Virus record (IMG/VR): IMGVR_UViG_3300045988_119718
Span: 188,611-252,610 of that record
DNA: 64,000 bases
DNA from: a virus
Strand: one strand, 5' to 3'
The notes under the pieces were generated by a model. It saw only the letters and a list, made by a program, of their open reading frames with translations. It searched no databases and was not told where the DNA came from. Position numbers and translations under genes: made by a program. This document shows, piece after piece, positions 52,962 through 61,749 of the stretch (position 1 is the first letter of the stretch; every line of letters starts with the position of its first letter).

Positions 52962-53243
52962 ATGAGTATATTTTGTAATCACTTTGAAGAGATTATAGTT
53001 CTATATAAAGTATTATCATACTATATAGATATCTATAATCTCTCAGTGGTTATAAGCACCAAACAATTATCCAATAATACAGTTAATCTTAAAGCTAATA
53101 TTTCTTGTACTAATATAGAAGTATTGAAAGAATTAATAGAAAGATTCAATAATAGTTCTTTTATTATATTTGAAAGAAATCTTAAATGTAAGATAAACTT
53201 ATTAAAGAATAATACTATAAATATCATTATTACTAAAAGATAG
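52962..53243 (+). CDS. Small hypothetical protein (start ambiguous: ATG 52962 behind TAGGAG, or TTG 52902).
   Basis: ORF only. Confidence 0.3.
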   Translation: MSIFCNHFEEIIVLYKVLSYYIDIYNLSVVISTKQLSNNTVNLKANISCTNIEVLKELIERFNNSSFIIFERNLKCKINLLKNNTINIIITKR

Positions 53244-53329
53244 AGTCTATATAGGCTCTATCTCTATTTTAGTTATTTAGGGATAACTATGACATTATTA
53301 TAATTTATAAGAAAAGGAGGTAATTAAAG

Positions 53330-54865
53330 TTGGCTGAACAAAAAGACTTCTTATCTATTAATCCTTTAGATATAGAAAAGTTTATTAAGGTTAATGAGCT
53401 TAAAGAAGTTACAAATCCTATATTCTTTTCTGCTAATAATGTACCTACATCAGATGGGTTATTATCCAATGAAATATTTGGTATTACAATGAATTCACGC
53501 TCTAATGTATTTGCATATATTAATCTAGGGGGTAAATACTTTATACACCCTATGATATATGCAATATGGAAGAAAGTAGACCGTAATATAGTGAAGTGCG
53601 TTCACTCTGTTTCTAATTTTAGATTATCTAATGAAGGCTATTTGGAAGAAAACGAAGACGGAGAAACAGGTATAGATTTCTTAAGAAAGAATATATCTAA
53701 AATCCATTTTAAACAATCAGATTCTTTCGTAAGAAAAGCTAATATAGCTTTCTTAGAGAAATTTAAAAATATTATGTTTATAAAGAACTATATAGTTATT
53801 CCAGCTTACTATAGAGATGTATCTACGGATGGAGGCAAAGTAGGTGTAGGCGATATAAACAAATTATATCAATACTTACTTATGGCTTGTAATTCTTTAA
53901 AAGAAATGGATCAATTAGGTATTACTACTTATGATGCTACTGTAGGAAGAATACAAGATTTATTATTAGAGATATATAGTTATTTTACTAAAGGTGAAGT
54001 ACAAGGTAAAACTACAGGTGCTGGTATAGCGGGTAAATTTGGTATATTACAGCATGGTGTGCAATCTAAGACAACAGACTATTCATCTAGATTAGTCATC
54101 TCTGCTCCTAATTTAAAAGTAGAAAGTATGGATGACTTACTTACTGATGTAGATCATGTAGCTTTACCATTAGCATCTGCTATTACCAATTTCTATCCTT
54201 TTGTATTAGCATATGTAAGACAGTTCTTTATGAATGAGTATAATAATAACCCTATAAGAAATGTATACTCTTCATCTACTAATACTAAAGAATTTAAAAA
54301 AGTAAAACTTAAAGATTATAGAATCAGTTTCTCTGATGATGTATTGAAAGAAGAAATAGATAGATTTATTCATGGTATTGCAAATAGATTTAGGCCTATA
54401 GAATTACCTACAGAAGATCCAAAATATCCTGTGGTATATATTAACTTTAAAGGTAGACATGCTACAGAAGAAGAAGTTACTAACGATTTAGAAAAAGAAG
54501 ATGATAATAGAGTACCTATTACTGAAAGAGTAATGACATGGTGTGATTTATTATACATGGCAGCTATAGAAGTAACAGCTGATAAAATGGTATTGATAAC
54601 AAGATATCCTATTGATAGTTGTTATAACCAATTCCCATGTGGTATTAATGTATCTTCTACAATTAAGACTGAACCTATGGTAATTAACCATAAGCTGTAT
54701 AAACATTATCCATATATTAGAACTGAAGATATTGGTAAGAATACTACTAATAAATTCATAGATACTTTAAACATCAGTAATGTTTATTTAGGTTCTATAG
54801 GTGGAGATTATAGAAAACCCATTGTAATCTCGTTAATCAACCTACTAAACTGCGGGGAACTCTTT
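53330..54865 (+). CDS. Multisubunit RNA polymerase beta-prime subunit, N-terminal part, exon 1 (up to ..NLLNCGELF). The track ORF continues to a stop at 54892 inside the intron.
   Basis: GKFGILQHGVQSKTTDYSSRLVISAPNLKV matches beta-prime [28 protein letters not shown]. IPAYYRDVSTDGGKVGVGDINKLYQYLLMACNSL matches [47 protein letters not shown]. Confidence 0.6.
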
Positions 54866-55724
54866 AAAAACCTAATAACCAAGCTATTATAGTAATATAA
54901 TAGTGGCGATTAGTAACGGAATCGGTATGGTAAAATCATTAGGTATTTAGACAATCAAACGCAACCAAGCTTCCATTCTAATTACTAGTATGGAAGAAGG
55001 CTCATCGACTATCGAACAGCAATTATTAAATTAATTGAACTTAGTAGAGTAGGGTTAATAACTGGCCCGAAAGAGTAGGCTATTATAAATTGCCATACAA
55101 TATTATAAAATACTTATTGGAGGATTTTATAATATGATAAAAATTTTAAATATTTTAGATATAAAACCAAATATGTACTCTATAAATGAAAACGGTATAG
55201 TTAAAAATATTAGAAGAAATAAAATATTATCAACACAATTATTCGTAAACGGGTATTTTACTGTTCATTTACAAACTACAACTAACGGAAGGCATTCATA
55301 TTACATCCATCAACTAGTAGCATATGCATTTTTACCCAAACCCAATTCAAAGGTAATAGTAAATCATAAAGATTTAAATAAGCAGAATAATAATGTAGAT
55401 AATTTAGAGTGGACTACTTATTCTATAAATAATAAATGGGAAAATAGAAATAATAATCCGCCTATTATAAAAACCAGAGGGTTGTGGAGTAAAGGCGAAA
55501 CTACATGTGGTGAAAATAATGGAATGCATATATATTCAAACGAAACGATAGAGTTGATTTGTAAAGCATTAGAAAAAGGGCTTAACTATACCGATACTTT
55601 AAAATATGCTAAATTACCTATAACAAATAACAATAGATATTTAGTTAGTCATATAAATAGAGGAAGTAGATGGAAATGTATATCTAAAAAATATAAATTG
55701 GCATATAATAGATAATATAGTCAG
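54866..55724 (+). mobile_element. Group I-like intron (about 859 nt) interrupting the RNAP beta-prime gene and carrying an HNH homing-endonuclease ORF. P7 is formed by GACUAU (55007-55012) and AUAGUC (55717-55722). Boundaries are approximate to within a few nt.
   Basis: Exon 1 ends in U, the intron ends in G (55724), and S-like AAUAUAGUC and R-like GACUA elements are present. Exon 2 starts exactly at the codon boundary encoding NSTDLDGDQ. Confidence 0.55.
55134..55715 (+). CDS. HNH homing endonuclease (I-HmuI/NUMOD-like), 193 aa, intron-encoded.
   Basis: NGYFTVHL...GRHSYYIHQLVAYAFLPKPNSKVIVNHKDLNKQNNNVDNLEW matches the HNH_3 pattern. SD GGAGG. Confidence 0.65.
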   Translation: MIKILNILDIKPNMYSINENGIVKNIRRNKILSTQLFVNGYFTVHLQTTTNGRHSYYIHQLVAYAFLPKPNSKVIVNHKDLNKQNNNVDNLEWTTYSINNKWENRNNNPPIIKTRGLWSKGETTCGENNGMHIYSNETIELICKALEKGLNYTDTLKYAKLPITNNNRYLVSHINRGSRWKCISKKYKLAYNR

Positions 55725-55946
55725 AATTCAACTGATTTGGATGGTGATCAGGTTACAGTTAAATCTGTATATTCTATAGAGGCTAATAATGAACTTAGAA
55801 ATCAATTAAATTCTAAGAGACATTTTATAGCTTTAGGTGGTAATAATATAATGGAAACTACTAATGAAGGTGTAGCTGCATTATACGCACTTACTATGAA
55901 TCCTACTTCTGAAAAAGAAGGAATATATACAGACCCAATATTTTAA
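55725..55946 (+). CDS. RNAP beta-prime N-terminal subunit, exon 2 (NSTDLDGDQVTVKSVYSIEANNELRNQLNSKRHFIALGGNNIMETTNEGVAALYALTMNP...). It contains the catalytic Asp triad.
   Basis: Aligns with [57 protein letters not shown]. The track starts it at TTG 55737, which would delete the first Asp. Confidence 0.55.
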   Translation, partial: NSTDLDGDQVTVKSVYSIEANNELRNQLNSKRHFIALGGNNIMETTNEGVAALYALTMNPTSEKEGIYTDPIF

Positions 55947-55970
55947 TTAGTATATAAGTATATACAAATT

Positions 55971-55994
55971 GGTAATAGGCATATGCCTATTACC
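55971..55994. terminator. Perfect 24-bp palindrome GGTAATAGGCATATGCCTATTACC followed by a T-rich tract.
   Basis: Lies just after the beta-prime exon-2 stop and is likely a terminator or operator. Confidence 0.45.
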
Positions 55995-56025
55995 AATTAT
56001 ATTTTATTATAAAGGAGGAGTAATT

Positions 56026-57043: not shown

Positions 57044-57118
57044 GGTCCTATAGTTCAACGGTTAGAACGCATGCCTTATAAGCGTGTCATGAAGTTTCGA
57101 CTACTTCTAGGACCACCA
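57044..57118 (+). tRNA. tRNA-Ile (anticodon UAU) with encoded CCA.
   Basis: Manual cloverleaf: acceptor GGTCCTA/TAGGACC, anticodon arm CATGC-CTTATAA-GCGTG, T-loop TTCGACT. Confidence 0.6.
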
Positions 57119-57138
57119 TTTTATTATATACTTACAAC

Positions 57139-57226
57139 GGATGTATGGCCGAGTGGTTTAAGGCACCAGTCTTGAAAACTGGCATAGAGAAATCTATCTG
57201 GGGTTCAAATCCCTATGCATCCGCCA
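57139..57226 (+). tRNA. tRNA-Ser (anticodon UGA), long variable arm, with CCA.
   Basis: Acceptor GGATGTA/TGCATCC, anticodon arm CCAGT-CTTGAAA-ACTGG, discriminator G. Confidence 0.65.
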
Positions 57227-57233
57227 TTTTTAT

Positions 57234-57309
57234 TCCTGAATAGCTCAGTCGGTAGAGCGTGTGACTGTTAATCACAATGTCGTAGGTTCGATCCCTACTT
57301 CAGGAGCCA
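57234..57309 (+). tRNA. tRNA-Asn (anticodon GUU) with CCA.
   Basis: Acceptor TCCTGAA/TTCAGGA, D-arm AGCTCAGTCGGTAGAGC, anticodon loop CTGTTAA, T-loop TTCGATC. Confidence 0.7.
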
Positions 57310-57310
57310 T

Positions 57311-57385
57311 CGGGGAATAGTACAAAGGTCAGTATGCTTGGCTTTGACCCAAGAGATTTGAGTTCGATTCTCAATTCCCCTGCCA
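57311..57385 (+). tRNA. tRNA-Gln (anticodon UUG) with CCA. There is a 1-72 mismatch.
   Basis: Anticodon arm CTTGG-CTTTGAC-CCAAG, T-arm TTGAG-TTCGATT-CTCAA, discriminator G. Confidence 0.55.
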
Positions 57386-60366: not shown

Positions 60367-61749
60367 ATGGATTTTGATAATTCTTTCCTTGATTCAGTAT
60401 TAGAAGGTGCAGAAGAAGCTATTGATATGACCTTAGATACTGTTCAAGAACAAGATACTGAAATAGAAGAGACTATATCCACCGATGTAGATGATGTAGA
60501 AATTGATTCTATTATCGGAGATGATGGTAAAGGTTCTTCTGCTTTAATTTCAGATGATGATATTGAAAAAATAGATTCTGGTAAAGACCCAGACTTCGAT
60601 ACTGTAGATGCAGATGCTGCTAAAGGTGCTAAAGATAAAGAAATTAATGATTTAGAAAAAGACATTGAAGATGGGTCTATTATCACTAAGAATGAAATAA
60701 AAGAACTTAAAGAAGGTCAAGAATTATTAGACTTTGTAGGAAGTGTTGTATCTGAAGATTTTGAGTTACCATCTACTGGAGAAGAGAGTATTGGTGAACA
60801 TGAATGTGGTGTATGCCATTGTACTCCGTGTATCTGCAAAGAACGAGTAGATATGATTACTCATCCATCTGAAGAAAACCAGCAACCAAGATTGATTTCT
60901 AATAAAGTTCCTACAGATGGAGTTATTTTTAGTGACGATCATGAATATGATGACTATACTGGAGAAAAACCAACGTTTTCTATGAATCAGCCTCATACAG
61001 TTGAAGAAGATGATTTATTTGATAATACCAATCAGGATTTAACTGGAGTTGAATCTGATGATAAAATTCATGGTAATGATTCTCATGAATTATTCTCTGA
61101 CGATGATGATGATACTGGTTTAGATGATGATGGTGAAATTCCTACAATTCCAGTTACTCCTAAATACAATCCAGAAGATGATAATGAACCGGCAGGCCCA
61201 GTTCAGCCATTAACCGATTGCAAAGAACAAAATCAATATGGATTTAGATTTGAAAATAATAATGAAGAAGGAGACTTAAATATGTTTGAAGATGAAGAAT
61301 TACAATTACTTGATGAATCTTTTGAAGAAGATTTATTAGAAATTGAGGATATCGCTGATGAATCAGCAGAAGAACAAGAACGCAAAGAAGAATATACTTT
61401 CTCTTTAGATGAACAAGCTGAATCTGTAGAAGAAGATCATCCAGATTTTCCAGTAGAAGAGGAAGCTCAGTTTACTCTTGATGAAGCATCTGATTGTTCT
61501 GATGAAAAAGCAGAAGATATTACTGGATCTATGGATGGGTTAGAAGATGTAGATATGTTTAACTCATTTGAAGGCTCTGGCATTAATACTAAACAGTTTG
61601 GTGAAGATGATTTTCTTACTGGTATGAATAAGAATGTTGATGAACCGTCTGGTTCTTTTGCCTCTCAGGATTCTCTTAAATTTTCCCAGGTAGATACTAG
61701 ACCATTTGGTAAAGCAGATGATCCATCTATTGCTGATATGATAAAATAG
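60367..61749 (+). CDS. Extremely acidic (D/E-rich) protein, 460 aa.
   Basis: ORF with SD AAAGGAGGAAATT. Composition is dominated by D/E. Confidence 0.6.
   Translation: MDFDNSFLDSVLEGAEEAIDMTLDTVQEQDTEIEETISTDVDDVEIDSIIGDDGKGSSALISDDDIEKIDSGKDPDFDTVDADAAKGAKDKEINDLEKDIEDGSIITKNEIKELKEGQELLDFVGSVVSEDFELPSTGEESIGEHECGVCHCTPCICKERVDMITHPSEENQQPRLISNKVPTDGVIFSDDHEYDDYTGEKPTFSMNQPHTVEEDDLFDNTNQDLTGVESDDKIHGNDSHELFSDDDDDTGLDDDGEIPTIPVTPKYNPEDDNEPAGPVQPLTDCKEQNQYGFRFENNNEEGDLNMFEDEELQLLDESFEEDLLEIEDIADESAEEQERKEEYTFSLDEQAESVEEDHPDFPVEEEAQFTLDEASDCSDEKAEDITGSMDGLEDVDMFNSFEGSGINTKQFGEDDFLTGMNKNVDEPSGSFASQDSLKFSQVDTRPFGKADDPSIADMIK

Follow-up and report, generated by a model that had tools for sequence, protein, structure and literature searches.

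How can a phage produce a working RNA polymerase (RNAP) subunit when the codons of its active site are spread over two open reading frames (ORFs) with a third one lying in between? This question is raised by positions 53330 to 55946 of a 64,000-nucleotide (nt) stretch of viral DNA (positions 188,611 to 252,610 of the IMG/VR record IMGVR_UViG_3300045988_119718), which is called the window here and whose positions are used throughout; the exons, intron and endonuclease gene described below all lie on its + strand. With an estimated probability of about 0.9, the answer is that a group I intron (54812..55739) with a gene for an I-HmuI-like HNH endonuclease interrupts the gene of the N-terminal RNAP beta-prime subunit inside the codons of the catalytic DxDGD motif. 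A preliminary description of this DNA had likewise proposed that an HNH-bearing group I intron interrupts a beta-prime gene at the catalytic motif and that splicing is needed for a functional enzyme. This proposal is supported, but both splice sites had to be moved.

The ORF 53330..54892 matches PHROG 2986, 'RNA polymerase beta subunit', with an E-value (E) of 4e-66 over profile positions 9-485 of 539, and about 300 jumbo phages were matched when it was used as a tblastn query. The top matches are rpoC1 of Listeria phage LPJP1 (33% identity), Staphylococcus jumbo phages and g145 of the Bacillus phages AR9/PBS1. The best AR9 match, g145 (approximately 31% amino acid (aa) identity), is annotated in GenBank as the virion RNAP beta-prime N-terminal subunit. 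In all of these alignments, the homology runs up to residue 494 (the Y of ..GSIGGDY; codon 54809-11) and no further, and the last 26 residues ahead of the in-frame stop at 54890-54892, which had been reported correctly, are without any homologue. The assignment of 53330..54865 as a beta-prime exon therefore holds for the protein family but not for the 3' end, as the homology stops at 54809-11.

A second frame, opening at 55716, reads ..DGDQVTVKS.., ends with a stop at 55944-46 and matches the last part of the same profile (positions 482-535 of 539, i.e. the last 54). The two matches overlap by four positions, with GGDY of the first frame and STDL of the second both placed on positions 482-485. 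Judged by these profile and tblastn matches, 53330..55946 can be considered one gene, encoding the N-terminal part of a jumbo-phage multisubunit RNAP beta-prime, and appears closest to the virion RNAP of AR9 and of the Staphylococcus and Listeria jumbo phages. A Pfam search with the exons gave no match because of the divergence of this protein, and PHROGs and tblastn were used instead. A megablast search of the region against 50,697 phage records gave no match either; a closely related cultivated phage is thus missing among them. The window is AT-rich, with a GC content of 28.6%.

The exact boundaries of the insertion follow from two relatives, L003 and L004, which were found by scanning IMG/VR with the spliced protein. 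An intron-less allele, of the kind for which a search had been suggested, is present in L003 (93% aa identity). In a three-way DNA alignment, L003 lacks exactly 54812..55739. It is collinear with exon 1 of the window through ..GGAGATTAT and reads ..GGGGGAGATTAT|GATGGGGACCAG.. across the junction, i.e. ..GGA GAT TAT|GAT GGG GAC CAG... The junction stretch of L003, ..GGGGGAGATTATGATGGGGACCAG.., shows synonymous differences from the window (GGG, GAC, GTA), which may make it resistant to the HNH endonuclease. L004 (95% identity, on a 231-kb contig) carries a 318-nt insertion without an ORF at the identical place. Since the extra DNA of the window compared to L003 is exactly 54812..55739, the intron is located inside the catalytic motif and not, as described earlier, immediately upstream of it; the true junction, to which the insertion in L004 and the RNA pairings described below also point, is GGDY|DGDQ (D-Y^D-G-D).

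Exon 1 (53330..54811) thus comprises 494 codons, ends with ..GGT GGA GAT TAT (..GGDY) and supplies the first Asp of DxDGD. Exon 2 (55740..55946; 68 codons and the stop at 55944-46) begins with GAT GGT GAT CAG (DGDQ), supplies the second and third catalytic Asp and is collinear with both L003 and LPJP1. Joining 54811 to 55740 gives ..GGAGATTAT|GATGGTGAT.. at the DNA level and ..IGGDYDGDQVTVKSVYSIEAN.. (..LGSIGGDY|DGDQVTVKS..) at the protein level, compared to ..LGADYDGDTLSIRGVFSAEAN.. in the uninterrupted gene of the cultivated phage LPJP1. Most other jumbo phages also run uninterrupted through the motif. In an alignment of the spliced protein with the RNAP gamma subunit of a cyanobacterium (8syi_D), which includes SIGGDYDGDQVTVKSVYSIEA, NADFDGDQ of 8syi_D stands opposite GGDYDGDQ. 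No junction other than 54811|55740 yields this protein and also obeys the rules of an exon-final U and an intron-final G.

The sites given in the preliminary description, an intron 54866..55724 joining ..NCGELF to NSTDLDGDQ, do have a U at 54865, a G at 55724 and a motif-like DLDGDQ. However, this join would add 23 residues found neither in the intron-less allele nor in any homologue. The 5' site, after U54811, lies 54 nt further upstream than proposed, and the stretch 54812-54865, which would become exon, holds the guide sequence and the 5' strand of P4 (UGCGGG, 54851-56). At the other end, the alignment to the intron-less allele places the 3' site 15 nt downstream, after G55739; position 55724 is only 2 nt past the 3' strand of P7, and neither a P1 nor a P10 could be drawn for the earlier sites. 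These coordinates can practically be dismissed. The frame at 55716 does continue into the C-terminal end of the PHROG 2986 profile, but its 'NSTDL' is intron sequence that resembles the motif when read through. The final hexanucleotide of the intron, GAUUUG, is similar to that of exon 1, GAUUAU (55728-55739 versus 54800-54811). Due to this likeness, in-frame reading of the intron's 3' end gives ..STDL-DGDQ, an imitation of the motif that misled the first reading. The likeness is probably due to chance; the comparable intron of Staphylococcus phage Madawaska has no such similarity.

What kind of element is this insertion? An intein was rejected, as the frame of exon 1 stops at 54890-92, with several further stops after it. 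No group II match was obtained in the window, whereas the same search finds the group II intron of AR9 (80.7 and 55.2 bits), and a translational bypass of 928 nt would be far too long. The RNA of 54812..55739 shows instead the features of a group I intron (928 nt), assigned to type IA with P7.1 and P7.2, whose first nucleotide follows U54811 and whose last one is the terminal G55739. P1 with the internal guide sequence spans 54804..54831, with GAGAUUAU (54804-11) pairing to GUAAUCUC (54824-31) over 8 base pairs (bp). This helix is closed at the 5' splice site by the wobble pair U54811·G54824, so that the last U of the 5' exon faces the guide G. RNAfold, run on the ORF-less allele, predicted P1 without help, and the P1 region is identical in sequence in L004 and in the metagenome contig L126. 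Directly 5' of the guide G, CCAUU (54819-23) can pair with the start of exon 2, GAUGG (55740-44), giving a P10 of 5 bp that directly adjoins P1.

The core follows in the usual order from P3 to P8. The segment 54841..54963 contains the 5' strand of P3 (CCUACU, 54841-46), P4 (UGCG, 54851-54, with CGCA, 54960-63) and an extended P5 three-way junction including a GUAA-capped hairpin (54884-54903). P6 is a hairpin at 54970..54996 (CUUCCAU/AUGGAAG). The 5' strand of P7, GACUAU (55007..55012), is embedded in the conserved R element AAGGCUCAUCGACUAUCGAA (54997-55016), which has a single match in the window against 0.02 expected by chance. P7.1 (55020-37), the junction AGUAGAGUAGG, P7.2 (55052-68) and the 3' strand of P3 (AGUAGG, 55074-79) take up 55020..55079. 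P8 (55080..55711) is formed by CUAUUAUA (55080-87) and UAUAAUAG (55704-11) and is extended by UGCCA (55091-95) with UGGCA (55699-55703). The 3' strand of P7, AUAGUC (55717-22), lies in the S element AAUAUAGUC and is followed by a 17-nt tail up to G55739 (55717..55739 in total). Both P7 halves and the S element had been recognised in the preliminary description and are present as proposed. Without constraints, RNAfold on the ORF-less allele (-80.5 kcal/mol) yields P1, P3, P4, P5abc, P6, P7.1, P7.2 and P8. As P3 and P7 cross as a pseudoknot, which cannot be written as nested constraints, P7 was paired manually from the R and S elements.

The same structure is kept in L004. Between the 5' splice site and P8, a stretch of 276 nt, differences of the window from L004 are confined to the loops L1, L6 and L7.1 and to one P6 pair. 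No substitutions at all are found in 54841..54963, and in P6 the loop differs while the stem is kept, its closing U-A becoming G·U. P8 of L004 has the same stem, CUAUUAUA/UAUAAUAG, closing an 8-nt loop, UGUCAUAA.

The preliminary description had put forward covariance models for a group I core as a check, and the answer depends on the model. The intron belongs to a wider family: at least 120 viral contigs contain the R element AAGGYTCAWCGACTATCGAA, and approximately 125 of its 143 copies are followed by AUAGUC 60-170 nt downstream. With blastn, the alignment of the ORF-less intron to the 120 family loci is limited to the region around the R element. The intron of the window is therefore a divergent member, and covariation was assessed at the family level. 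A covariance model, R1, was built from an alignment of 62 non-redundant phage segments running from Q to S, none of the tested sequences being included. In this alignment the elements follow each other as in the window, and the element order and junction motifs of 55020..55079 also agree with T4 td. P6, P7.2 and P8 covary across the family, with both sides of each pair changed in 17-32 of the 62 sequences. R1 matches the intron of L004 with 89.4 bits (E 1e-16), the window at 54951-55116 with 65.1 bits (E 1e-11), intron 2 of AR9 g145 with 107 bits and the Madawaska intron with 115 bits, while no match is obtained on the intron-less L003 and LPJP1. Within 12 kb of T4 it matches only the td (22.6 bits, E 8e-4) and nrdB (16.1 bits, E 0.018) introns, which links the family to the self-splicing introns of the classic IA type.

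Two further observations were made with these searches. A weak R1 match at 60875-61018 of the window (17.4 bits, E 0.08) falls inside an intact 460-aa ORF (60367..61749) and is probably noise. Among the IMG/VR contigs L041, L051, L085, L058 and L064, several carry three to four copies of the R element within a few kb and appear to contain genes with multiple introns of this family.

Several points count against a group I intron at this locus. The general Rfam model RF00028 gives only a partial match at 54851-55011 (18.3 bits against a gathering score of 50), which spans only P4-P6 (with P4-P5-P4') and the R element, and scores equally weakly on the ORF-less L004 (16.3 bits). No convincing P2 (at most 3 bp) or P9 is found, the 17 nt after P7 allowing a mini-hairpin of at most 3 bp. 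With only two sequenced variants, covariation within this particular intron amounts to the single P6 change from U-A to G·U. Furthermore, we infer from sequence that the RNA splices and does so autocatalytically, and likewise that the HNH protein is active and specific for this site. As a control, RF00028 was run on the accepted group I intron of AR9, where no match at E<=10 was obtained; this model is therefore a poor judge of the subtype. At the gathering threshold, Rfam reports four tRNAs only in the whole window. Ranked by E-value, spurious miRNA, K10_TLS and SSRC30 matches appear, arising from AT-rich hairpins and a terminator (the hairpin at 55967-55998 being the miRNA match).

The low RF00028 score and the missing P9 would also fit a pseudogene, inactivated by a decayed mobile element that stays in the RNA. 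However, exon 1 has a ratio of nonsynonymous to synonymous substitution rates (dN/dS) of 0.07-0.10, with 0.097 between the two intron-bearing genomes (synonymous rate (dS) 0.28), and exon 2 one of 0.05-0.10, with 0.104 between these genomes (dS 0.37). Both exons are under strong purifying selection (dN/dS approximately 0.1) between intron-bearing genomes. The stems of the intron show no substitutions while dS in the exons is approximately 0.3, the allele recurs on six metagenome contigs, and no second copy of this subunit, which is essential in studied relatives, was found in the window. A pseudogene is therefore very unlikely.

Another explanation is that the gene works in pieces, with a 520-aa polypeptide and a 69-aa polypeptide starting at a TTG at 55737 that reassemble, as in the NrdA of phage Aeh1 split by mobE; fragment 1 would then provide the first Asp and fragment 2 the DGD. 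Public assemblies indeed call ORFs of 520, 193 and 69 aa, the TTG is present, and jumbo-phage RNAP subunits are already split elsewhere (PMC7598289). On the other hand, the sequence 5' of TTG 55737 has no Shine-Dalgarno motif, and fragment 1 would carry 26 non-homologous residues right beside the active site. The insertion bears the full group I signature, and L004 retains 318 nt of structured non-coding RNA at this place, which the insertion of a free-standing endonuclease gene would not explain; an intron is the sole explanation for this stretch. Given its dN/dS of 0.104, exon 2 is translated in frame, although it lacks a Shine-Dalgarno sequence of its own. Taken together, the selection on the exons, the nearly unchanged intron and the recurrence on six contigs argue against both a pseudogene and a gene split into two polypeptides. 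We give very little credence to the reassembly of two fragments with an active site that is shared between them in this way.

With a spliced group I intron as the preferred reading, the HNH gene can be considered next. As described earlier, the ORF 55134..55715 encodes an HNH protein. It has its own ribosome binding site (RBS), GGAGG (55119-23), and its 193-aa product matches Pfam HNH_3 with 38.3 bits against a cut-off of 24.8 (E 1e-9) and PHROG 59 with an E of 4e-27. In the alignment with I-HmuI (PDB 1u3e; E 1.6e-9), the His and Asn residues of the HNH motif are aligned, and from its sequence the motif looks intact. The HNH cassette (approximately 55088-55703) replaces the loop of P8 and is flanked by the stem-extending UGCCA and UGGCA, while the 3' strand of P8 and J8/7 coincide with the last codons of the ORF. 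The gene is polymorphic for presence or absence: it fills the P8 loop in the window, whereas L004 has the same intron with a P8 loop of 8 nt. The identical HNH protein is found in the same context of 520-, 193- and 69-aa ORFs on the six metagenome contigs. A near-direct repeat (10 of 11 positions) flanks the cassette, aaattgccata at 55087-55097 and aaattggcata at 55695-55705. With its near-palindromic core, which extends the P8 stem, this repeat could be a trace of the entry of the endonuclease gene or simply a stem.

The intron might also splice while its HNH protein no longer serves homing, being either inactive or mainly a weapon against co-infecting intron-less relatives, as gp210 of phage PhiPA3. 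An intron-encoded HNH endonuclease in a jumbo-phage virion RNAP gene has been reported to nick the allele of a competitor and to lower its yield (PMC11620839), and the intron-less L003 and the ORF-less L004 relatives coexist in metagenomes. Nevertheless, the HNH motif looks intact, and homing and interference are not mutually exclusive. We consider a loss of the homing role possible, but rather less likely than its retention.

Based on these data, the following mechanism is proposed. A single pre-mRNA would be transcribed, from the RBS and TTG at 53330 to the terminator at 55967-98. The intron RNA 54812..55739 would fold such that P1 presents U54811·G54824, and an exogenous guanosine bound in P7 would attack after U54811. 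P10 (CCAUU/GAUGG) would then align exon 2, and the 5' exon would attack after the terminal G55739. The ligated mRNA, encoding ..LGSIGGDY-DGDQVTVKS.., would restore the Mg-binding DxDGD triad, exon 1 contributing the first Asp and exon 2 the remaining two. In co-infecting relatives without the intron, the HNH protein most likely introduces a nick into the same gene close to the insertion site, and repair would then copy the intron into that allele (homing).

The signals around the gene are in line with one transcription unit. An RBS (GGAGG, 53316..53320) is located 9 nt 5' of the TTG start at 53330; the LPJP1 homologue likewise begins with TTG. A terminator scan found a terminator-like hairpin upstream of the gene (53238-53263) and an intrinsic-terminator-like hairpin just 3' of exon 2 on the + strand (55967..55998; 14 bp followed by a T-rich tail), which would close the unit. 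Such strong terminator-like hairpins thus flank the interrupted gene on both sides (two found versus 0.6 expected). Approximately 1.1 kb downstream of the gene, four + strand tRNA genes are present at 57044-57385, for Ile (TAT), Ser (TGA), Asn (GTT) and Gln (TTG).

The annotation of this locus should be corrected to a two-exon coding sequence (CDS), join(53330..54811,55740..55946), encoding 562 aa. As called automatically, three unrelated ORFs hide an essential RNAP subunit and its active site. The public gene calls for the identical locus, on the metagenome contigs L126-L128 in ENA, are separate genes of 520, 193 and 69 aa; the spliced 562-aa subunit is therefore missing from protein databases. 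Furthermore, three allelic states (no intron, an ORF-less intron and an intron that has its endonuclease gene) occur at 93-95% identity and form a clean natural series. This series is suitable for studying the invasion of introns by endonuclease genes and intron homing in uncultivated jumbo phages.

Among the known systems, the second intron of AR9/PBS1 g145, discussed in PMC12350094 (NAR 2025), is located in the orthologous gene and in the same catalytic motif, and also has a homing-endonuclease gene (g146) inside. In GenBank, the g145 CDS is a three-exon join and Madawaska gene 113 a two-exon CDS, both with homing-endonuclease-bearing introns in this motif. AR9 intron 2 shares the R element, the AGUAGAGUAG junction and the S element with the window. 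It splits ..GGA GAC TAC GAT|..|GGT GAT ACA.. (L002 6890-6905, 8780-8800), with a P1 formed by ACUACGAU and GUCGUAGU. The AR9 site, DYD^GD, is thus 3 nt downstream of DY^DGD in the window. In addition, g146 encodes a 494-aa 'Hef-like' protein and is placed near the 5' end, ahead of the guide sequence and at a distance of 79 nt from the splice site, whereas the P8 loop houses the gene for the 193-aa HNH protein of the window. P9 hairpins are present in AR9, where the window has a 17-nt tail. Unlike the window, AR9 g145 also has an upstream group II intron, its first, identified with RF02004 (80.7 bits) and RF00029 (55.2 bits) at L002 5220-5393 and 6633-6717. This Rfam placement agrees with PMC12350094. 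The GenBank note of AR9 labels g147 a 'group I intron VSR' endonuclease, yet according to Rfam g147 is inside this group II intron.

Gene 113 of Staphylococcus phage Madawaska (viral RNAP beta-prime N-terminal) is orthologous as well and carries an intron of the same family in the same motif, with core motifs that are shared with the window and AR9. As in the window, the tail after P7 is very short (11 nt) and P9 is absent. The gene is split as GAT TTT GAC GGT|..|GAT ATG (L125 2770-2790, 4245-4262), so its site, DFDG^D, lies 6 nt downstream of that in the window. Its 379-aa endonuclease gene is found upstream of the core, near the 5' end, whereas that of the window is in the P8 loop. The endonuclease genes of AR9 and Madawaska are both larger than, and unrelated to, the HNH gene of the window.

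According to Birkholz et al. (Science 2024, PMC11620839), the intron in gp210 of PhiPA3 encodes an HNH nickase that acts against PhiKZ. Similar to the window, an HNH nicking endonuclease is found here in a putative group I intron of a jumbo-phage virion RNAP gene, at conserved aspartates. The PhiPA3 intron, however, interrupts beta and not beta-prime, and its lineage is that of the Pseudomonas chimalliviruses. Nicking and competition were shown experimentally for PhiPA3, whereas the window is known from its sequence alone. More distant are the DNA polymerase introns of SPO1/SP82 (I-HmuI, I-HmuII), whose I-HmuI is a homologue of the HNH protein of the window, and the td and nrdB introns of T4, which have the same IA-type core but match distantly (16-23 bits). 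Unlike in the window, the host genes are those of DNA polymerase, thymidylate synthase and ribonucleotide reductase.

With AR9 and Madawaska included, insertions are thus known at three adjacent positions of the DxDGD codons in this gene, which makes these codons a possible hotspot. Three related group I introns are inserted here within 6 nt, each at its own bond: that of the window at DY^DGD, that of AR9 at DYD^GD and that of Madawaska at DFDG^D. Their endonuclease genes differ, as do the positions of these genes in the introns. It is tempting, but for now speculative, to regard the Y-D-G-D codons of beta-prime as a recurrent homing hotspot of multiple lineages in AR9-like jumbo phages, with the HNH protein of the window as a gp210-like weapon against relatives of the L003 type. 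Jumbo-phage RNAP genes with group I introns that carry homing endonucleases have already been published, and no new principle is involved; what this uncultivated phage adds is a new insertion bond and a new pairing of intron and endonuclease gene.

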